Of a stretch of 64,000 nt of DNA, positions 5,099 through 60,808 are shown piece after piece. A program made the translations under genes and the position numbers. Each line of letters starts with the position of its first letter. Positions within the stretch are counted from its first letter, which is position 1. The notes under the pieces are model-generated. The model saw nothing but the letters and a program-made list of their open reading frames with translations. It was not told the DNA's origin and did no database searches. The stretch comes from Candidatus Aquidulcis sp. (GTDB taxonomy: Bacteria; Chloroflexota; Anaerolineae; UBA4142): NCBI GenBank assembly GCA_020723345.1, contig DYJA01000003.1, positions 12,972 to 76,971 on the forward strand, read 5' to 3'.

Positions 5099-6571
5099 AT
5101 GACTCACTTTGAACTCCTCACAGCAGAACAAGTCAACGAAATCCACGCCGCGTCGCTCGAAATACTTGAGAACGTCGGTTTGCTGGTGCGGAACGAAAAC
5201 GCACGCGCGCTTTTCGCGCGGCACGGTTGCCGCGTCGACAACGCAACAAACATCGTCAAGTTTCCGCGTGCCGTCGTCGAACAATATCGCGCGGCATTTC
5301 CGCCGACGTTCACTTTTCACGGACGCGATCCAAAATATGATCGCACCATCCCACGCGATCGACCGGTGATCGTCACCGGCAGTTCCGCGCCGGATTTGGT
5401 CGATCCGGTGACCGGGCAAGTGCGCCGCGCGTACTCGGACGACATCGCGCGCATCGCGCATCTCATCAACGCGTTGCCGGGTTACGACGTGTTTTCCATT
5501 TCCACGCTCGCCGAAGACGCGCCGCCCGGTTACCACACGATCGCGCGGCTGTACCCGTCGGTGAAGAATTGTGTCAAGCCGGTACGCTGCAACGCGTTGA
5601 ACGCCGACGACGCGGAAAAAATTCTGCGACTCGGCGCGCTCGTCGCCGGAAGCGAAACCGCGTATCGCGCGCGTCCGTTCATCACGGGACATTTTTGCCC
5701 GGTCGTTTCGCCGCTCACGATGGACGTTGACTCGACCGAGATGCTGATCTATTTCACCGCGCGGCAACTGCCTAATTACGCGACGATCGTGCCAAACGGC
5801 GGAATGTCGTCGCCGCTGACGCTGCTGGGAACGCTCGCGCAAGGCAACGCGGAATTTCTCGCGTGGGCAACGTTGGCGCAAATGGCGCATCCCGAAACGC
5901 CGCTGATCTACAGTTCGCTCTCGACGCTCGCGGATATGCGGCGCGGCAACTATGCGCCCGGCGCGATCGAAACGGGGATGTTGCACATCGCGCACGCGCA
6001 AATGGCGCGGTTTTACAACGTGCCCTCCGGCGGTTACATCGGCTTGACAAATTCCAAACTGAACGACGCGCAAGCCGGGTACGAGTGCGGCATGTCGGTC
6101 GTCGCGGGGTTGCTTGGCGGCGCGGATATGTTCAACCTGGGTGGCTTGCTCGACGCGCTGACGACGTTTGACTTTGGCAAAGCGGTGACTGACAACGAAA
6201 TCGCGTTGATGCTGAAACGATTGCAGCGCGGTTTCGAATTCAGCCGCGAAAACATGTCGCTCGATCTGATCGCCGAAGCAAAGCCGGGCGGAACGTTCAT
6301 GGACAAGCCGCAGACGCTCGATTTGATGAAGACCGCGCTCTTCTTGCCGGACATCGCGGATCGTAACGTGCGCGACCGCTGGCAGAAACAAGGCGCGCTG
6401 GACGCGCAAGCGCGCGCGCTGAAACGCGTGCGTGAGATTTTGGCGCGCGATAACCCGGCGGTCTTTTCGCCGGAGGTAGACGCGCGCGTGCGCGCCGCGT
6501 TCGCCGGATTGGTCAAAGGGGATTCCGTGCCGCTGAACAGTCAACAGTCAACAGTCAACAGTCAACGGTAA
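5099..6571 (+). CDS. Second MttB-superfamily methyltransferase, non-pyrrolysine type
   Basis: 'FELLTAEQVNEIHAASLEILENVGLLVRNENARALFARHGCRVD'. No in-frame TAG. The C-terminal 'LNSQQSTVNSQR' is encoded by (CAGTCAA)n heptamers. Confidence 0.85.
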   Translation: MTHFELLTAEQVNEIHAASLEILENVGLLVRNENARALFARHGCRVDNATNIVKFPRAVVEQYRAAFPPTFTFHGRDPKYDRTIPRDRPVIVTGSSAPDLVDPVTGQVRRAYSDDIARIAHLINALPGYDVFSISTLAEDAPPGYHTIARLYPSVKNCVKPVRCNALNADDAEKILRLGALVAGSETAYRARPFITGHFCPVVSPLTMDVDSTEMLIYFTARQLPNYATIVPNGGMSSPLTLLGTLAQGNAEFLAWATLAQMAHPETPLIYSSLSTLADMRRGNYAPGAIETGMLHIAHAQMARFYNVPSGGYIGLTNSKLNDAQAGYECGMSVVAGLLGGADMFNLGGLLDALTTFDFGKAVTDNEIALMLKRLQRGFEFSRENMSLDLIAEAKPGGTFMDKPQTLDLMKTALFLPDIADRNVRDRWQKQGALDAQARALKRVREILARDNPAVFSPEVDARVRAAFAGLVKGDSVPLNSQQSTVNSQR

Positions 6572-33817: not shown

Positions 33818-34642
33818 TTACCCGACTTTGGCGCGCCGCGTCGTTGCTTGACACTCCAACTGCGGCGTCTGGGTGTAACGCCCGGCTTTCAAGTCGGCGC
33901 GCACTTTTTTCAGCAAGTCGGCGCGCGCGAGTTTGTTCTGGCACGCGCGCACTTGCTTGCAAAAAAAGTACGTGAACGCGCCGTGCCACGCGCCACCGAT
34001 GCGCGCGTCCGCGCTCGTCTGATCCGCGCGGCAACCCGCCCACAAGACGTGCTGCTTGGTCTTCTTTTTGCCGAACGATTGATAAAAGCTGCGCGCCTCG
34101 CGCTCGCTCACCATGTCGAACGATGCCAGCGACGGCGGCGGCAAATAGCGCGGCTTGCGGTCGAACAAAAAGTCAATCGCTTTCAAGCCGGTGCCGCTGT
34201 GGCACGTGTCGAGGTAGACTTCGAGCAAAACCGTCTTGGGTAACTGAACGAAGAGGTCGTGCAGTTCGTCGTCGAGGATAATGTGCTGCGGATCCCAATG
34301 ATCGCCTGCCGCAGCGAGATCGTGCGGACAGAACGCCTCGTCGTAATTGTCCGGCTCGTCGCCGCTCGTGTCCGGCGTCTGCGTGCCGTGACTCGACAGC
34401 GAAAAGATGAGATAATCGAATTTGCCGGCTTGCGCATCATTCACCATCGCGGTCAAGTTCGCCATGATGTTCGACTTGGTTGCCTGCGCGTCGGTCAGCA
34501 TAACGATGTCCGCGTTCGTAAAGCCGAGAAAGCCGGTCAGCACAGACACCATGTCGTTCACATCGTTGACGCAACCGTTCAATCCGTTGTTCGGATAATT
34601 CTTGAAATGGTTGATGCCAACGCACAATGCTTTGCGTGCCAT
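33818..34642 (-). CDS. Caspase-like peptidase C14 (orthocaspase), catalytic domain only
   Basis: 'KALCVGINHF', catalytic His in 'FSLSSHGTQ' and Cys in 'YLDTCHSGTG'. RBS GGGAGGAG. Confidence 0.85.
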   Translation of the reverse strand: MARKALCVGINHFKNYPNNGLNGCVNDVNDMVSVLTGFLGFTNADIVMLTDAQATKSNIMANLTAMVNDAQAGKFDYLIFSLSSHGTQTPDTSGDEPDNYDEAFCPHDLAAAGDHWDPQHIILDDELHDLFVQLPKTVLLEVYLDTCHSGTGLKAIDFLFDRKPRYLPPPSLASFDMVSEREARSFYQSFGKKKTKQHVLWAGCRADQTSADARIGGAWHGAFTYFFCKQVRACQNKLARADLLKKVRADLKAGRYTQTPQLECQATTRRAKVG

Positions 34643-34671
34643 TTTGCTCCTCCCTGTTTTCATCGCGCGAT

Positions 34672-34713
34672 GAAAACAAAAACGCCCTGGCGCGCGTCGC
34701 GCGCGCCAAGGCA
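34672..34713 (-). terminator. Terminator-like GC hairpin plus T-tract (copy B), overlapping a 22-nt perfect palindrome at 34656-34677
   Basis: Minus sense: TGCCTTGGCGCGCGCGACGCGCGCCAGGGCGTTTTTGTTTTC, followed by GTTTTCATCGCGCGATGAAAAC, then the RBS. Confidence 0.5.
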
Positions 34714-34794
34714 ACCATCACCCTGTCGTGAAAATCGCGACAGCAAGTTTTTCCCGGCACATTGTCGCACCGAACGGTTGAAAAAGCAAGGGGC

Positions 34795-34843
34795 ATAAAA
34801 AAGGGAGTGCCGCTTTTGATCCGCGCTGATACAAAAGCGGCAC
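34795..34843 (-). terminator. Intrinsic-terminator-like hairpin in the long leader
   Basis: Minus sense: GTGCCGCTTTTG...CAAAAGCGGCAC (12-bp stem), then TCCCTTTTTTAT. Confidence 0.5.
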
Positions 34844-34928
34844 ATCGCCAAGTGGTTGTTCCTCCCGCAGACGCCGGCGGGAGGAGACAACCTATCGAAA
34901 AGGAGGAGAAGAAGGGCATTTGGCGCGC

Positions 34929-34958
34929 AAACAAAAAACCACAGGGGAAGACTGTGGT
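34929..34958 (-). terminator. Riboswitch expression-platform terminator
   Basis: Minus sense: ACCACAGTCTTCCCCTGTGGTTTTTTGTTTG. The upstream GTCTGTGG can pair with CCACAG as an alternative structure. Confidence 0.7.
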
Positions 34959-34985
34959 TTAAGCGCGCCGATCTGCGCCACAGAC

Positions 34986-35112
34986 TTGTCCCCTTCAATG
35001 CCTACGAAGTTAGCTGACGGGTTGGAGTTGAAGGATACTCCTCTCGCTTGGCGAGATTCACCCCTCGATTGGTTCCTCCGTTCTCTCGGTGCACGAGAGA
35101 TTCGGCAGACAA
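34986..35112 (-). promoter_or_regulatory. c-di-AMP riboswitch aptamer (ydaO-yuaA/kimA class)
   Basis: The minus sense contains GAATC-hairpin-GAACGGAGGAACCAA, GAGGGGTGAATC-hairpin-GAGGAGTA and CCAACCCGTCAGCTAACTTCGTAGGC. These match the pseudo-twofold conserved blocks of the ydaO motif (GGGGUGAAUC; ACCCGUCAGCUAACCUCGUAAGC). P1 pairs TTGTC with GACAA. Confidence 0.85.
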
Positions 35113-35132
35113 TTGTTCGATTTTCTGGCTTT

Positions 35133-35161
35133 AATATACCACATTCCTGCCGATGTGTCAA
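35133..35161 (-). promoter_or_regulatory. Consensus sigma-70 promoter driving the riboswitch
   Basis: Minus sense: TTGACA (35161-35156), 17-nt spacer, TATATT (35138-35133). Confidence 0.7.
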
Positions 35162-35165
35162 GTAT

Positions 35166-35193
35166 TTGACGATTCCAAAATTGATGGTAGAAT
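35166..35193 (+). promoter_or_regulatory. Divergent extended -10 promoter giving a leaderless amidohydrolase mRNA
   Basis: TTGACG, 16-nt spacer, TGgTAGAAT. The ATG at 35201 lies 7 nt after the -10 box and there is no RBS. Confidence 0.55.
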
Positions 35194-35200
35194 CTTTGCG

Positions 35201-36097
35201 ATGATTATTGACGCGCACACACACCTTTTTTCGCCTGACGTGATCGCGGATCGCGCGCGATACACTCAACGCGATTCCTTTTTCGATTTTCTGTACCGCA
35301 ATCCCAAAGCGCGCATCGTCGGCGCGGCGGAATTGATCGCGGCGATGGACGCGGCGGGCGTCGCCAAATCCATCATCGCGGGCTGGGCTTGGCAGAGCAA
35401 CGATGTTTGCATCGAACAAAACTCGTGGCTGATCGAGATCGCGCGGCAGTACCCGGATCGTCTGCTCGCGCTCTGCACGGTGCAGCCGAATGCCGGCGAC
35501 GCGGCGATCCGCGAGTTTCGACGCTGCATCGAAAATGGAATGGCGGGCGCGGGCGAACTGAACGCGGACGGACAAGGTTTTCGATTGGACGATACCGGCT
35601 TGATGAACCTCGCGCGCGCGGCGATTGAACTGCGCGCGCCGATCATGCTGCACACGAACGAACCGGTCGGACACAATTATCCGGGCAAAGGACAATTGCC
35701 GCTCGCGGCGATCTACGCGCTCGTCAAAGCGCTGCCCGATCTGCGGCTCGTGCTCGCGCATTGGGGCGGCGGCTATCCATTCTACGAACTGATGCCCGAA
35801 GTGCGCGCCGCGTCGCGCAATATTTTTTACGATACCGCCGCGTCGCCGCTGTTGTACGCGCCGCAGATTTTTCGCACTGTCGTCAACATCGTCGGCGCGG
35901 ACAAAGTTTTGTTCGGCAGCGATTTCCCGCTGATCCTTTATCCCAAACGCCAAAAAGAACCCGACATGCAACCATTTCTGGATGAGGCGCGCGGCGTTGG
36001 TTTTTCGGCGGAAGAACGCGCAAAGATTTTGGGAGAGAACGCGGAAAGGGTGTTTGGGCAATCAGTCAATCAGGCAACCGGTCAGTTGGTCAACTAA
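35201..36097 (+). CDS. Amidohydrolase-2 family (TIM-barrel metal-dependent hydrolase)
   Basis: 'MIIDAHTHLF', 'MLHTNEPVG', 'LAHWGGG', 'FGSDFPL'. The C-terminal 'GQSVNQATGQLVN' is encoded by GTCAATC-type heptamers. Confidence 0.85.
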   Translation: MIIDAHTHLFSPDVIADRARYTQRDSFFDFLYRNPKARIVGAAELIAAMDAAGVAKSIIAGWAWQSNDVCIEQNSWLIEIARQYPDRLLALCTVQPNAGDAAIREFRRCIENGMAGAGELNADGQGFRLDDTGLMNLARAAIELRAPIMLHTNEPVGHNYPGKGQLPLAAIYALVKALPDLRLVLAHWGGGYPFYELMPEVRAASRNIFYDTAASPLLYAPQIFRTVVNIVGADKVLFGSDFPLILYPKRQKEPDMQPFLDEARGVGFSAEERAKILGENAERVFGQSVNQATGQLVN

Positions 36098-37598: not shown

Positions 37599-37828
37599 AA
37601 CGATTTGGTTATACTCCTCCCTCCGAAATCCCCGATTGCTTTTCCGACCGCGATAGTCCTAATGGGTAATTGTCGTCGCCGCGACAATCTGTTAAAGTGA
37701 GGACAATCAACCTTGGGCTCGACGCAGAGACCAGGGCATTTTTGACCTACGCGCGTGTACCTTCCGCGTTCGTACTACTCCGGGATTTGCGCTTCTCCAA
37801 AAAGATCGTCGAGAAAAGTGAAAACACG

Positions 37829-40800
37829 ATGCGAAAGAAAAATAAGACGGCTATACAAAGTCCTGCTGCATCGCCTCAGGCGCGTCCGACAATTGGCTAT
37901 CTAGCCCGGACGCTCAACGGAGATAATGATCAAGCGCTGTGGTCTGGCATCACGGATGCGGCGCGCGCGCGCGACTTGAATCTATTCTGTTTTATGGGGC
38001 AATGCCTATTCGATCCGAGAGACTTTCAAGCGCAAGCGAACATTCTGTACGATCTGGCGAACGCGCAGAACGTGAATGGGCTGGTCAGTTGGGCGAGCGC
38101 GATTGGCACGTACGTCGACGCGGCAGCGCAGCGAACTTTCCACGCGCGTTTTCGTCCTCTCCCGGTGGTACCCATCGGCGGGACTATCGAAGGATTTCCC
38201 GGCGTGATGATCGATGGATACACCGGCATGCGCGCGGCGATCGTTCACCTCATCGAAACGCACGAATGTCGTCACATCGCTTTCATCCGTGGACCGGAGA
38301 ATCACACTCAAGCGCAAGAGCGTTATCGCGCCTACGTCGAAACCTTGGAAGCGTATGACTTGCCGTTGGACGCGCGCCTGATCACCCCACCGCAACACTG
38401 GGCGCACAAGACGGGCGTAGACGCAATTCGTCTGCTGCTGGACGAACGAAAATTGCGCCCACACGCTGACTTGGAAGCCCTCGTCGCGCCGAGTGATTTG
38501 ATCCTGGTCGGCGCACTTGAAGAATTGCGCCGACGGGGGATTCAGGTCCCTGAACAAATCGCGGCGGTGGGATTCAACAACAGTCTCCAGAGCCGAGCCA
38601 ACACGCCGCCGATCACTTCGAGCGCGTTGCCGTTTCACAAATTGGGGCATCGCGGAGTCGAGGTATTGGCGGATTCGCTGACGCGGAGCAGTCCCGTCTC
38701 CGAGCAAATGCTCGTGCCTCAACTAGTCATCCGACAGTCGTGTGGTTGTGTGGACTCGGCAATTGTCCAAGCCGCCGTGGTTGATTCGGGCAAAACTGAA
38801 CGCGTCACGTTCGAATCTTGGGTTGCTTCGCAGCGCGAGCAAGTTGCCGCGCGGCTGGCGCGCGCCGTAGATGAAAACGCCAAGGGTGTGACGGCTGGTT
38901 GGGCGGAGCGTCTCTTGGAAGCGTTCGTCGTCGATTTGAAAGACGCGGCGTCCAGTCGTTTTCTGCAAGAACTGAATGACACTCTGCGCCAGGTGATGAC
39001 GGCGGGCGGCGATGTGTCGGCATGGCACAGCGCGGTCTCGGCGCTGCGGCAGCAAGCTGCGCCCTATTTGCAAGGCGCGACATTACAGCGCGCCGAAGAC
39101 CTGTGGCACCAAGCCCGCGTGACTGTCGGCGATGTTGGGCAGCGGATGCAAACACAGAACGCGCTCCAAGCCACGGAACAAGATCGAATTTTGCGTGAGA
39201 TCGAAATTGAACTCCTGACGACACTCGACATCTCCGTGCTGATGGACGTCCTCGCCAAAAATCTGCCCCGGCTGGGAATTCCCAGTTGCTATCTCGCGTT
39301 GTACGAGAATCCGCAGCCATACAATTATCCGCAAGCCGCGCCCGAATGGTCGCGCTTGATGCTGGCATACACCGAGCAAGGTCGAATCGACTTGGAATCC
39401 GGCGGTCGCCGGTTTCGCACGCGCGCGCTGGTGCCGGAGGGACTGCTGCCCGCCAACCGGCAGTACGGTTTTGTCGTCGAACCGCTGTACTTTCAAGATC
39501 ACCAGTTGGGATTTGTATTGTTCGAGATCGGTCCGCGCGACGGCGGAATTTATGAAACGCTCCGCGCGCAACTCAGCAGCGCGTTGAAGAGCGCGCTGTT
39601 GTTACAGGAACGACAACAGGCAGACGAAGCGCTGGCGACCGAACGCAACCTACTGCACGCGCTGCTCGACACGCTCCCTGATTCGGTCTACTTCAAGGAT
39701 GCCGAATCTCGTTTCATTCGCATCAGCAAAGCCAAGGCGCTCCGAAATGGACTGGGCGATCCGGCGCACGCCATCGGCAAGAGCGATTACGACTTTATGG
39801 GCGAAGACCAAGCCCGCGCTTCACAAGCCGACGAGCAAGAGATCATGCGCACGGGCGTCCCCAAGATCAATGCAGAAAGAAAAATTAAACGACTCGATGG
39901 CTCGTACCGTTGGAGTCTGATCACCAAATTGCCGCTGCGCGATCCGGACGGCAACATCGTCGGCACGTTTGGCGTGACGCGCGATATTACCGGGCAGAAG
40001 GAAGCGGAAGAAGCGCTCAAACAAAGCCGCGCCGAAATCGCGCTGGTCACCGACAATGTCCCGGCGCTGATCGCGCACGTCGATTCAACCTTCCACTATT
40101 TGTTTGCGAATAAAGCGTACGCCGAGTGGTTCGGCATGAGTCCGGAGGAAATCGTCGGCAAACACGTGCGCGATGTCATCGGCGAACGCGCCTGGGAAAA
40201 GTCCGCCAAGTTCCTCGCCCAAGTCCTCCACGGAGAACTTGTTACATTTGAGCGCACCGCCGTCTCTCCGACAAAGCAAGAGCGCATTCAAAACGTTTCT
40301 CTAGTACCCCAATTCGATGAGCAAGGATCGGTCTCAGCGTACTTTGCCTTGATCCTGGACGTGACCGAGCGTAAACAATTGGAAGAAACCCTGGCGCAAG
40401 AACGCACGCTCTTGCGATCGATGATCGATAATGTGCCCGATCGCATGTACGCCAAAGACTTGGAGAGCCGTTTTATCATCGGCAATATATCGGTCGTCCG
40501 CCGCATGGGACTGAGCAGACCGGACGAAGTCATCGGTAAAACGGATTTCGATTTTCTGCCGCGAGAGACCGCCGCGCGCTTTCGCGCGGATGAACTTGCG
40601 ATCATGCAGTCGGGGCAGCCGATGATCAATCGCGAAGAACCACTCGAGCAAGTGGACGGCATCGTCACGCGTTGGAATCTGGCGACCAAGGTTCCGCTCC
40701 GCGATAGCCAAGGCAACATCATCGGAATCGTGGGCGTAGGGCGCGAAATCACCGAGCTCAAACGGGCGGAAAAAGAATTACGTCAGGCAAAAGAAACAGC

Positions 40801-43042
40801 GGAGCAAGCCACGCGCGCCAAGAGCGAATTCCTCGCCAACATGAGTCACGAAATTCGCACGCCGATGAACGCGATTGTCGGACTAAGCCACCTCGCGCTC
40901 AAGACCGAACTATCCGCCAAACAGCGCGATTATCTGAACAAGATTCAATCCTCCGCGCACGCCTTGCTGGGATTGCTCAACGACATTCTGGATTTTTCCA
41001 AAATCGAGGCGGGCAAACTCGAAATCGAAAAGACGCGTTTCCATTTCGATCAAGTGTTGAACACCGTGGCAAACGTGGTCACTTTCAAAGTGCAGGAAAA
41101 GGGGTTGGAAATTTTCTTTCGAACCGCGCCGGATGTGCCGATGGAATTGATCGGCGATCCGCTGCGCTTGGGGCAGGTGCTCATCAACTTGGTGGGCAAC
41201 GCGGTCAAGTTCACCGAAAAAGGCGAGATCATCGTTTCGACCGAGTTAGTCTCCCGGCAAGATTCGCAAGTTGAACTCCGCTTTGCCGTGCGCGATACCG
41301 GAATCGGAATGACCGAGGAACAGCGCGCCAAATTGTTCCAGCCGTTTATCCAAGCCGACGGTTCGATGACGCGCAAATATGGCGGCACCGGTCTGGGGCT
41401 CGCGATCAGCAAAGAGTTGGTGGAACGGATGGGTGGAACGATCGGCGTCGAAAGCACACCCGGCGTCGGCAGTACGTTTTACTTCACCGGCATCCTGGGC
41501 GCGCAACCGGAGGCGACGACCAAAAGGTACCGGCTCCCCATCGACTTGCGCGGCAAACGCGTGCTGGTCGCGGATGATAATCCAACGGCGCAGGATATTC
41601 TCAAAGCCATGCTGACAAATATGTCGTTCGACGTAACCACCGTGGCGTCGGGGCACGCGGCACTGCAAGAACTGGAGAGCCAATCCTACGATCTCGTGAT
41701 CCTCGATTGGCGCATGCCCGGCATGGACGGCATCGAAACCGCGCGGCGGATCAAAGCCCGCCTGCACGCGCTCAACGCGCCGAAGATTTTCATGGTCACG
41801 GCTTATGGACGCGAAGAAGCGATCAGTCAAGCGGACAAATTGGGTTTGGATGGTTTTCTGATCAAACCAATCAGCGATTCGATCCTCTTCGATACGGTCA
41901 TGGAAACCTTCGGGCGCGACCGGAAACGACCCGCCGATTCAGTCGGCGCAACCTGCCCGCTGCCCAAAGCAACTACGGCAGTGGCGGGCGCGCGCGTGCT
42001 CGTGGCGGAAGACAACGAGATCAACCAGCAAGTCGCGCGCGAAATTCTGGAAGGGTTTGGCTTGAACGTGGAAATCGCCAACAATGGCAGACTGGCAGCC
42101 GATACGCTGGCGGCAAACCCAGATCGCTTCGACGCCGTGCTCATGGACTTGCAAATGCCGGAGATGGATGGCTACGAAGCGACGCGCGTCATTCGCGCGC
42201 GCGCGAATGGCAAAACTTTGCCTATTATCGCGATGACCGCCCACGCGCTATCGAGCGAGCGACAACACTGTCTCGATGCCGGGATGAACGATTATGTCTC
42301 CAAACCGGTCGATCCGGATCTCTTGTTGGAAACCTTGTCGCGTTGGATCACGCCACAACCGGAGCAACTAATTATGATCCCACACACCAAACCGGAACCC
42401 GCGCCGGACGCGGCGGCGCTGCCCGAAGCGCTGCCGGGCATTCAAGTGCGCGACGCGCTCAAGCGCACGATGGGCAATCAGCAGTTGCTCGTGGAACTCC
42501 TCGGCGATTTTCGCCGCACGTACTCCGACGCGCCAGAACAAATTCGCCAACTCCTCGCGCGCGCGGATAACACCCCGGCGCGTCGCCTCGCGCATAGCGT
42601 GAAAGGCGTTGCGGCAAATCTCTCGATGCCCCAAGTGTTCGCCGCGGCGCGAGATTTGGAAGCGGCAATTCAGCAAAGCGATCAAACTCGCATCGCCGCC
42701 GAGTTGGAAAATTTGGAGCACGCGCTCAAGCCGGTGAGCGAATCCATCGCGCAACTTGTCGCCCAGCCAGCGTCCGCCGAGCCAACCCGCGCGCCGGCTC
42801 CCGCGCCGCTAGACCGCGCGCGGCTACGTCCGATCCTCGCAGAACTCGATACGCTGCTCAAGCGAAATAGTCTGAGCGCGCGCAAGCAATTTGGTCTGCT
42901 GAAAGAACAACTCAACGGCGCAGGCGGCGAAATCCAAGCGCAGATGGAACACTTGGAAACGTGCCTGGCGCGATTGGAGTTTAAGCCAGCCCAGGAACAT
43001 CTCGCCGCCATAGAAACGGCGCTCGACGCGAGGCCGGCTTGA
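37829..43042 (+). CDS. Soluble hybrid sensor histidine kinase: LacI-type periplasmic-binding-fold domain, uncharacterised region, 4 PAS, HisKA-HATPase, 2 REC, HPt
   Basis: N-terminus '[21 protein letters not shown]...VGFNNS'. H-box '[14 protein letters not shown]'. 'GGTGLGLAI'. REC '[11 protein letters not shown]' and '[11 protein letters not shown]'. HPt '[11 protein letters not shown]'. No obvious TM helix. Confidence 0.9.
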
Positions 43043-54600: not shown

Positions 54601-54676
54601 TGGTCGGGGCGAAAGGACTTGAACCTTCGACCTCATCGTCCCAAACGATGCGCGCTACCAACTGCGCCACGCCCCG
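54601..54676 (-). tRNA. tRNA-Pro (anticodon TGG), CCA encoded
   Basis: Reverse complement: CGGGGCG TG GCGC AGTTGGTA GCGC G CATCG TTTGGGA CGATG AGGTC GAAGG TTCAAGT CCTTT CGCCCCG A CCA. Folded by hand. Confidence 0.9.
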
Positions 54677-60387: not shown

Positions 60388-60461
60388 CCTCCCCGGCGAG
60401 GCTCGAACTCGCAACCTCAGCCTCCGCAGGGCTGCGCGCTATCCAATTGCGCTACGGGGAG
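60388..60461 (-). tRNA. tRNA-Arg (anticodon GCG), CCA not encoded
   Basis: Reverse complement: CTCCCCG TA GCGC AATTGGATA GCGC G CAGCC CTGCGGA GGCTG AGGTT GCGAG TTCGAGC CTCGC CGGGGAG G. Folded by hand. Confidence 0.85.
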
Positions 60462-60465
60462 ATAT

Positions 60466-60536
60466 CCCAGTATTCAGTGTCCAGTAAACAGTAATCAGAC
60501 TGAATACTGAACACCGAATACTGAATACTGAACGCA
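60466..60536. repeat. Heptamer-repeat hairpin (CAGTATT family) between tRNA-Arg and tRNA-Ser
   Basis: CCCAGTATTCAGTGTCCAGTAAACAGTAATCAGACTGAATACTGAACACCGAATACTGAATACTGAAC. Confidence 0.8.
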
Positions 60537-60537
60537 G

Positions 60538-60633
60538 CGGAGGGGGCGGGATTTGAACCCGCGACAGCGGCTTTTAGGACCACTGTAGTCACTTAGCAGG
60601 CGACCGCACTAGACCAAACTATGCGACCCCTCC
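60538..60633 (-). tRNA. tRNA-Ser (anticodon GCT) with a long variable arm
   Basis: The reverse complement starts GGAGGGG TC GCAT...GTGC G GTCGC CTGCTAA GTGAC. Variable arm ACAGTGG-loop-CCGCTGT, T-arm GCGGG TTCAAAT CCCGC, acceptor CCCCTCC G. Confidence 0.8.
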
Positions 60634-60635
60634 AG

Positions 60636-60722
60636 GAAATTTGGAAATTAGAAATTGGACGTTAGAAGTTGGATGGTTGCGGCGGGTCAAACTTCCAACT
60701 TCTAATTTCCAACTTCCGATTC
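60636..60722. repeat. Heptamer-repeat hairpin (GGAAATT / AAGTTGG family) between the two tRNA-Ser genes
   Basis: GGAAATTTGGAAATTAGAAATTGGACGTTAGAAGTTGGATGG...CAAACTTCCAACTTCTAATTTCCAACTTCCGATTCC. Confidence 0.8.
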
Positions 60723-60724
60723 CT

Positions 60725-60808
60725 CGGAGGAGGAAGGATTCGAACCTCCGTGGCTTGTGACCCATCCGCTTTCAAGGCGGCGCCGATAGTCCACTCCGGC
60801 ACTCCTCC
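60725..60808 (-). tRNA. tRNA-Ser (anticodon TGA)
   Basis: Reverse complement: GGAGGAG TG CCGGAGTGGACTATCGG C GCCGC CTTGAAA GCGGA, variable arm, GGAGG TTCGAAT CCTTC CTCCTCC G. Confidence 0.8.

Follow-up and report, generated by a model that had tools for sequence, protein, structure and literature searches.

Organization of the locus

The subject of this study is a 64,000-nucleotide (nt) stretch of DNA from Candidatus Aquidulcis sp. (Chloroflexota; Anaerolineae; contig DYJA01000003.1), here called the window, whose minus strand carries a gene for a metacaspase-type protease behind a long leader with an aptamer of the cyclic di-adenosine monophosphate (c-di-AMP) riboswitch family. We consider it likely that this leader is a c-di-AMP-responsive OFF riboswitch that gates, by transcription attenuation, a metacaspase-like gene in an Anaerolineae-type clade of Chloroflexi. 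The features on which this reading rests are the following.

35161-35133, minus strand: promoter P1, TTGACA-17-TATATT with TG ahead of the -10 hexamer; 11 of 12 consensus matches in the promoter scan
35117-34984, minus strand: c-di-AMP riboswitch aptamer, Rfam RF00379 (c-di-AMP/ydaO); full-length covariance-model match
34994-34978, minus strand: antiterminator 5' strand AGGGGACAAGUCUGUGG; pairs with 34957-34943 (5' arm and loop of T1)
34960-34929, minus strand: intrinsic terminator T1, stem AAACCACAG/CUGUGGUUU followed by a U tract; terminator scan
34914-34892, minus strand: CU-rich tract CTTCTTCTCCTCCTTTTCGATAG, 23 nt, resembling an anti-Shine-Dalgarno sequence; no difference among the seven riboswitch-bearing leaders in which it is covered
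34892-34854, minus strand: hairpin H2; 14 pairs, four of them changed on both sides
34849-34797, minus strand: hairpin H3 with a short U tract (hairpin to 34803, core stem 34843-34807); 19 pairs, 100% paired
34654-34647, minus strand: Shine-Dalgarno (SD) sequence GGGAGGAG, read from the sequence
34642-33818, minus strand: metacaspase-type Peptidase_C14 gene, 274 amino acids (aa); Pfam and PDB matches

Promoter (35161-35133), terminator (34960-34929) and gene start (34642) thus lie in cis on the caspase strand, and this order is kept in the related loci, which are designated below by L numbers. The near-perfect promoter that an earlier note on this DNA had described was found at its place, and both of its hexamers are invariant in the leaders of L082, L002, L099 and L100. 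The same note had proposed a ydaO-class aptamer at 35112-34986. When the covariance-model check was run over the whole window with cmscan, RF00379 was matched at 34984-35117 on the minus strand with 88.5 bits (E value 2.4e-19), over model positions 1-134 of 134. Membership was defined as a score at or above the curated gathering score of the family, 38 bits, over the whole model, and the aptamer therefore belongs to RF00379, as do six full-length orthologous copies with 80.7-87.3 bits. All strongly conserved positions of the pseudo-symmetric core blocks (GCCGAAUC..., CGGAGGAACC, GGGGUGAAUC, AACCCGUCAGCUAAC and CGUAGGC) are matched with high posterior probability in the cmscan alignment, and the blocks are invariant or almost so among the orthologues. 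The aptamer helices are retained in every copy, with most pairs invariant at this shallow divergence, and a clean double change is found at one aptamer pair only (columns 134/151, AU in five sequences and GC in two). A permissive Rfam scan of 34550-35250 (E values up to 10) returned RF00379, a meaningless match to a small nucleolar RNA and no other family.

Downstream of the aptamer, the 9-bp stem of T1 (34960-34936), followed by TTTGTTTG, was flagged as terminator-like by the scan, and 9 of 9 stem pairs are invariant across seven sequences. The competing antiterminator that had been suspected, GTCTGTGG (34985-34978), turned out to be part of the longer strand 34994-34978, whose pairing with T1 gives the lowest-energy fold predicted for 34999-34926 (-23.2 kcal/mol). 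The sequence of this strand is conserved in the leader alignment (A3), and we infer a regulatory role for it. The whole leader of 496 nt folds far better than shuffled versions of itself (z = -7.6).

The gene at the end of the leader encodes a stand-alone C14 peptidase with intact His and Cys residues, just as had been claimed. It matches PF00656 over residues 3-270 with 108 bits (cutoff 21.4; E value 7.7e-31). The catalytic dyad, His85 (SSHGTQ) and Cys147 (DTCHSG), is invariant in an alignment of 25 homologues, and both motifs fall on the catalytic region when the protein is aligned with yeast Mca1. Yeast metacaspase Mca1 (PDB 4f6o, E value 9.4e-29) and plant metacaspases are the closest solved structures. 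With type I metacaspases and prokaryotic orthocaspases (Mca1/Yca1), the protein has in common the p20 His/Cys dyad and a p10-like region with a GCRADQTSADA motif; unlike these, it carries no N-terminal prodomain or accessory domain, its 274 aa being the catalytic domain alone. The gene product is predicted to be a cytoplasmic metacaspase-like protease.

Conservation of the riboswitch-caspase unit

Relatives of the caspase were gathered from genome and metagenome collections and then scanned with Rfam. An aptamer and a caspase orthologue on the same strand were found in at least six further Chloroflexi lineages, with 74-88% identity of the orthologue; in the comparison that the earlier note had suggested, relatives thus do keep the riboswitch next to a C14 peptidase. 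The aptamer lies 5' of the orthologue in L082, L083 and L089-L094 (85% protein identity), in L002 and L084 (79%), in L099 (75%) and L100 (74%), and in L098 (82%; truncated by the contig end); in L097 (82%) the contig begins within the leader, and only the 3' part of the unit is present. The P1 hexamers, the aptamer, T1 and the sequence after the terminator can be aligned across the riboswitch-bearing loci. Within the window lineage, leader conservation amounts to 83-85% DNA identity over the alignable part and about 90% in the extension that follows T1, with an invariant core.

The upstream neighbours of the unit differ from lineage to lineage, with a divergent amidohydrolase gene in the window, co-directional MsrPQ-like genes in L089, and different open reading frames (ORFs) again in L002, L099 and L100. 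The downstream neighbours, a small converging ORF, leuB and leuD, are retained. With varied genes on one side and constant genes on the other, the promoter, riboswitch and caspase behave as one conserved block. In three of the further lineages, riboswitch and gene have no other promoter-like site between them. In L002 and L099, the coding strand from the upstream gene to the caspase contains P1 and no second promoter-like site, so that the caspase mRNA can hardly begin elsewhere there.

The caspases of Chloroflexi group into a single clade in a neighbour-joining tree, and riboswitch carriers are found on all sub-branches of this clade, mixed with non-carriers. The simplest history would be an ancestral association of riboswitch and caspase followed by several losses, an ancestral link being favoured because the leaders are homologous. 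Outside this clade, the Rfam scan found no riboswitch at the caspases of 21 loci from other phyla, which makes the link clade-specific, and of the 80 genome loci searched for the core pattern CCGNCAGCTAAC, L002 alone contains it. Judged from these sequence comparisons, the pairing of riboswitch and caspase is not a matter of chance.

The caspase itself has a far wider distribution. Stand-alone proteins of 274-276 aa (the window and L002-L081) are unusually conserved, with 62-79% identity across bacterial phyla and archaea, and 384 confirmed stretches were counted in GTDB species representatives. The hosts include Chloroflexi, Chlorobiaceae, Nitrospirota, Desulfobacterota, Acidobacteriota, Bacteroidales and Rhodocyclaceae and, among the archaea, Methanoperedens, Methanobacterium and Methanosarcinales. 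This suggests that the caspase has spread horizontally under strong purifying selection. Clustering of the ORFs at 80 caspase loci revealed no partner gene conserved across phyla, the recurrent clusters being those of Chlorobiaceae synteny; genomic context thus yields no clue to the function of the caspase. Assignment to a defence system was considered with PADLOC and rejected, since only a generic caspase match (E value 3.2e-14) was obtained, without system context.

A conserved leader extension downstream of the terminator

All riboswitch-bearing leaders have in common about 125 nt 3' of T1, which comprise the CU tract, H2 and H3. In these two hairpins, 97% of cells are paired, versus about 46% with slid partners; five pairs are changed on both sides, and the covariation score lies above that of all 500 shuffles. 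H3 contributes one compensatory pair and one wobble change. H2 and H3 are therefore conserved RNA structures. Their joint fold has an energy of -53.8 kcal/mol (z = -7.7), and the CU tract is predicted to stay unpaired in it. The loop of H3 is invariant, whereas neutral loops of the aptamer have diverged. A covariance model of the extension (R1), searched against 0.98 Mb made up of the window and the fetched loci, matches all ten riboswitch-bearing loci with 129-150 bits, and nothing else in the 0.98 Mb exceeds 27 bits. In the permissive scan, the extension matched no Rfam family. The riboswitch-less Anaerolineae caspase of L004 is preceded by long GC-rich inverted repeats (5700-5900), which account for a weak, spurious R1 match of 27 bits on the opposite strand.

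Candidate partners for the CU tract were ranked by predicted pairing, with the purine strands of the aptamer first (-16 to -18 kcal/mol), followed by the caspase SD and then by the linker behind the aptamer; RNAalifold pairs the tract with this linker. All of these partners are invariant, so that covariation cannot choose among them. The 3' arm of H2 was ruled out as a partner, since its changes are matched by changes in its own 5' arm and the CU tract is invariant. H3, when a bulged extension of its stem is taken into account, is directly followed by three to six U residues. As a terminator, this element (34843-34795) is non-canonical unless the bulged extension is allowed, and H3 could be a weak second terminator. 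Our best guess is that the extension acts as a second control layer on read-through transcripts, either by sequestration of the SD or by way of such a terminator. That it constitutes a new regulatory RNA domain, be it another sensor arranged in tandem with the aptamer or a module acting after transcription, which would put translation of the read-through mRNA under c-di-AMP control as well, appears to us rather unlikely.

A related possibility, which we entertain only tentatively, is a tandem leader with two inputs, in which the extension would be a second, independent sensor or attenuator (a ligand aptamer or a protein-binding element) with H3 as its terminator, and the caspase would be expressed only when low c-di-AMP coincides with a second signal. 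The invariance of the 23-nt tract and of the H3 loop next to diverged neutral aptamer loops would fit such a function, as would the covariation in H2 and H3, the U residues directly behind the bulge-extended H3 and the lack of an Rfam match; tandem arrangements with c-di-AMP riboswitches have been described as well, as Na+-I/c-di-AMP pairs and c-di-AMP doublets (PMC9337991, PMC9481103). However, the comparison covers about seven lineages of one clade, and the invariance may partly reflect shallow divergence. An alternative antiterminator for H3 is not apparent, and the U tract is weak in L099 and L100. Since the extension never occurs without the riboswitch, an extended expression platform would explain it equally well.

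The extension might also serve as a regulatory RNA in its own right. According to this explanation, which we judge very improbable, a read-through RNA of about 330 nt would end at H3, and its CU tract would act in trans on SD regions, after the model of the riboswitch-derived small RNAs SreA and EutX/Rli55. The invariant pyrimidine tract, predicted to be unpaired, appears complementary to GGAGG, and H3 with its U run could represent the 3' end of such an RNA. Against this, the unit is always located directly 5' of the caspase, H3 is followed by a weak U tract, and no trans target was identified, while any CU tract pairs with any SD.

Classical attenuation by a leader peptide encoded in H3 (L-[A/V]-[M/T]-CRFCISADQ[K/R]RHS...), whose translation would modulate the folding of the hairpin, is the least probable of the explanations weighed here. 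A frame is open across H3 in all lineages, the variable positions of H3 are synonymous or conservative in it, and about 9 nt separate a GGGAGGA in the 3' arm of H2 from a UUG downstream of it. The start codon, however, is not conserved (UUG is replaced by CUG in L099, and AUG by ACG in L082 and L002), L002 and L099 have a degenerate form of the SD-like arm, and the C-terminus and stop position are different in every lineage. Variation at third codon positions is limited to 3 of 13, two of which preserve the pairing of the stem while the third is a bulge in it.

Two further reading frames in this part of the leader were rejected. An antisense ORF of 66 aa (34762-34962, plus strand), called as a gene of 63 aa in L089, is broken by indels and stop codons between lineages. 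A sense ORF of 112 aa through T1 and the CU tract (34998-34660) owes its existence to the U and CU runs and is a low-complexity artefact, with no SD and an unconserved frame.

Lineage-specific elements between the extension and the gene

The interval between H3 and the ribosome-binding site varies among the relatives, measuring about 40 nt in L002, L098 and L099 and being taken up by an unrelated spacer of about 90 nt in L100. Tandem repeats of a CCAATCA-like heptamer, in three to four copies, were noticed between H3 and the ribosome-binding site of L002 (5710-5750) and L099 (1195-1225). In the window the interval contains the following elements.

34789-34761, minus strand: P2, candidate promoter inside the leader, TTGCTT-17-GACAAT with a TG extension; read from the sequence, under the scan threshold
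34743-34723, minus strand: hairpin H4; lineage-specific, not alignable outside the window
34713-34673, minus strand: hairpin H5, 14 bp, GC-rich and terminator-like, followed by TTTTTGTTTT; terminator scan
34677-34656, minus strand: 22-nt palindrome, an RNA hairpin adjoining the SD; fold prediction

The window, L082 and L097 share an insertion with a P2-like site, H5 and the palindrome, and in the window also H4. P2-like sites recur in L082, in L097 and in the riboswitch-less L086, and are absent from L002, L098 and L099. The alternative promoter that the earlier note had seen near 34780 is therefore a recurrent site, albeit one below the scan threshold and missing in those three lineages. H5 is a repeated element with a second copy at 33662-33620 on the minus strand; L082 (there with its U tract degraded) and L086-L088 carry it too, L097 has only a remnant, and L002, L098 and L099 are without it. 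The predicted 22-nt palindrome was located at 34677-34656, and its hairpin reaches into the first bases of the SD in the window. A role as a DNA operator was rejected, because L082 retains the pairing only by means of G-U wobbles, which favours an RNA hairpin. In the metagenome contigs L086-L088, which are without the riboswitch, the P2-like site, H5 and the palindrome are nevertheless retained before the caspase. The caspase orthologue of L086 (2355-3178, the same in L087 and L088; 85% identical) is apparently frameshifted after about six codons.

P2, H4, H5 and the palindrome are thus lineage-specific additions outside the core device. The further stem-loops and T-tracts that had been described do exist in the window, but the last of them (34743-34656) are peculiar to its lineage and H5 is a repeat. 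Likewise, the proposal of tandem attenuators holds for H2 and H3, with their conservation and compensatory changes, and not for H4, H5 and the palindrome, which L002, L098 and L099 lack. The window caspase may have in P2 a second, riboswitch-independent promoter, and the insertion probably came later and adds a riboswitch-independent input in the window lineage.

If this input were the only one, the riboswitch of the window would be uncoupled from its gene: transcripts from P1 would stop at T1, H3 or H5, the caspase would be transcribed from P2 only, and the riboswitch RNA would be left over as a relic or serve as a small RNA of its own. The retention of a P2-like site in the window, L082, L097 and L086, the strong terminator-like H5 just before the ribosome-binding site, and the persistence of P2 and H5 in L086-L088 without any riboswitch are consistent with this explanation. 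We nevertheless regard it as improbable, as P2 is a poor match to the consensus and H5, being downstream of P2, would block transcripts from P2 as well. Furthermore, strong purifying selection acts on P1, aptamer, T1 and extension in the window lineage, as the DNA identities given above indicate, and no other promoter-like site exists in the lineages that lack P2.

Proposed mechanism

The architecture resembles that of the ydaO/yuaA and kimA-leader riboswitches (RF00379) in its core blocks, its promoter, its position in the 5' untranslated region and its intrinsic-terminator platform (PMC7266159, PMC9337991). The characterised c-di-AMP riboswitches terminate transcription on ligand binding and are OFF-acting (PMC9337991), and the OFF polarity of the present one would follow by analogy with them. 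Ligand binding by the aptamer, the step from this binding to loss of the antiterminator, and the role of the extension are likewise what we infer for the attenuation mechanism outlined here. Transcription would start at P1, near 35125. By default, the 5' arm of T1 and its loop would be paired with the linker 34994-34978, allowing read-through. With c-di-AMP bound, the folded aptamer would withhold the linker, T1 (34960-34936) would form and the transcript would end near 34929. A candidate for the coupling is an extension of the aptamer's own P1 helix (UGUC/GACA), which might trap the middle of the antiterminator strand. When c-di-AMP is low, the polymerase would pass through the 125-nt extension, with CU tract, H2 and H3, into the caspase gene. 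In other bacteria, low c-di-AMP is a signal of potassium or osmotic stress. From the link of c-di-AMP with osmotic conditions, production of the protease might be expected under osmotic stress (PMC7266159, PMC9337991).

Several observations weigh against this mechanism. The fold energy of the antiterminator is no better than that of shuffled controls (z about -1.2), the P1 helix of the aptamer and the antiterminator do not overlap, and the candidate helix extension UGUC:GACA is invariant and so gives no covariation signal. The riboswitch is missing in several close relatives (L085, L086-L088, L095, L096, L003 and L004), which implies that the control is dispensable. P2 and the strong H5 with its T tract stand between riboswitch and gene in the window, so that read-through from P1 may contribute little there. 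Finally, the diadenylate cyclase signature G[TS]RHR[AS]A does not occur within the 64-kb window, an absence that is uninformative as the window is only part of the genome.

The second gene and other features of the window

A second gene follows the caspase gene on the same strand.

33568-31757, minus strand: 603-aa gene; T 18%, G 13%, N 10%

Its description in the earlier note as a secreted T/G/N-rich protein agrees with the composition and with a signal-like N-terminal segment; a hydrophobic segment is found at the C-terminus. For this protein, to which the earlier note had given a putative beta-helix fold, neither Pfam nor NCBIfam yields a match, and PDB none that is significant. The idea that caspase and surface protein form a pair under common control was not borne out. 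None of the related loci contains the 603-aa gene; there the caspase is directly followed by the small converging ORF and leuB, which in the window flank the pair of caspase and 603-aa genes. In addition, the two genes are set apart by a terminator-like hairpin (33801-33772) and a promoter-like site, TTGTTT-17-GATAAT (33768-33740). Absence from the relatives and a promoter-like site of its own place the 603-aa gene outside the riboswitch unit.

The hairpin, GGGAAAGGU...ACCUUUCCC followed by CUCUUGUUUU on the minus strand, stands directly 3' of the caspase stop codon and is probably the caspase terminator; the terminator scan missed it because its loop has 12 nt. The promoter-like site and the second copy of H5 with its T tract, which together occupy 33768-33620 (minus strand) before the 603-aa gene, are paralogous to the module of P2 and H5. 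Modules of this type may represent a shared attenuator or a mobile promoter-leader cassette.

Upstream of the riboswitch, P1 (minus strand) stands back to back with a second promoter-like site, TTGACG-16-TAGAAT (35166-35193, plus strand). The Pfam match of the amidohydrolase begins at residue 19 of the listed ORF; the true start is probably the ATG at 35201, which would make the mRNA nearly leaderless. Farther away, the window contains four tRNA genes, one at 54604-54676 and three clustered at 60388-60808 (minus strand), two of the cluster having long variable arms. An ORF of 1790 aa (37670-43042, plus strand) resembles a hybrid sensor kinase when its translation is judged by eye, with apparent periplasmic-binding-like, PAS, histidine-kinase, double-receiver and Hpt parts.

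Relation to known c-di-AMP riboswitches and significance

The targets described for c-di-AMP riboswitches are K+ and amino-acid transporters, osmoprotection and osmotic-response genes and genes of cell-wall remodelling, which ties these riboswitches to osmotic-stress responses (PMC7266159). Elevated c-di-AMP indicates the absence of osmotic distress, and its degradation under osmotic stress relieves the repression exerted by the riboswitch (PMC9337991). The aptamer studied here is an ordinary member of RF00379; what appears to be new is the target gene and the conserved leader extension. Unlike the known members, it is associated with a metacaspase-type Peptidase_C14, with a Chloroflexi host and with an invariant extension of 125 nt after the terminator. 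The earlier suggestion that such an arrangement had not been described is in line with a full-text literature search, not covering the original gene-association tables of the class, in which no paper linking a c-di-AMP (ydaO) riboswitch with a caspase, metacaspase or orthocaspase was found. Like the tandem c-di-AMP logic gates, of which the Na+-I/c-di-AMP form occurs in Dehalobacter (PMC9337991, PMC9481103), the leader places a c-di-AMP aptamer with its own terminator in series with terminator-like elements in one 5' untranslated region. In contrast to these gates, the c-di-AMP element comes first here, and the element that follows matches no known riboswitch class, its role as a sensor being hypothetical.

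Through a conserved metacaspase link, regulated proteolysis inside the cell would join the functions that are switched on at low c-di-AMP, and a caspase-like protein with 62-79% identity across many bacterial and archaeal phyla would for the first time be given a concrete point of access to its regulation. The condition under which the protease is produced becomes testable by depletion of c-di-AMP, for example by K+ limitation or osmotic upshift, and the leader extension is a small, defined candidate for a new RNA regulatory element. If the extension were indeed a new domain, the leader would represent a switch with two layers or two inputs by which a caspase-like protease is licensed, and would tie second-messenger stress signalling to regulated proteolysis or cell death in bacteria.

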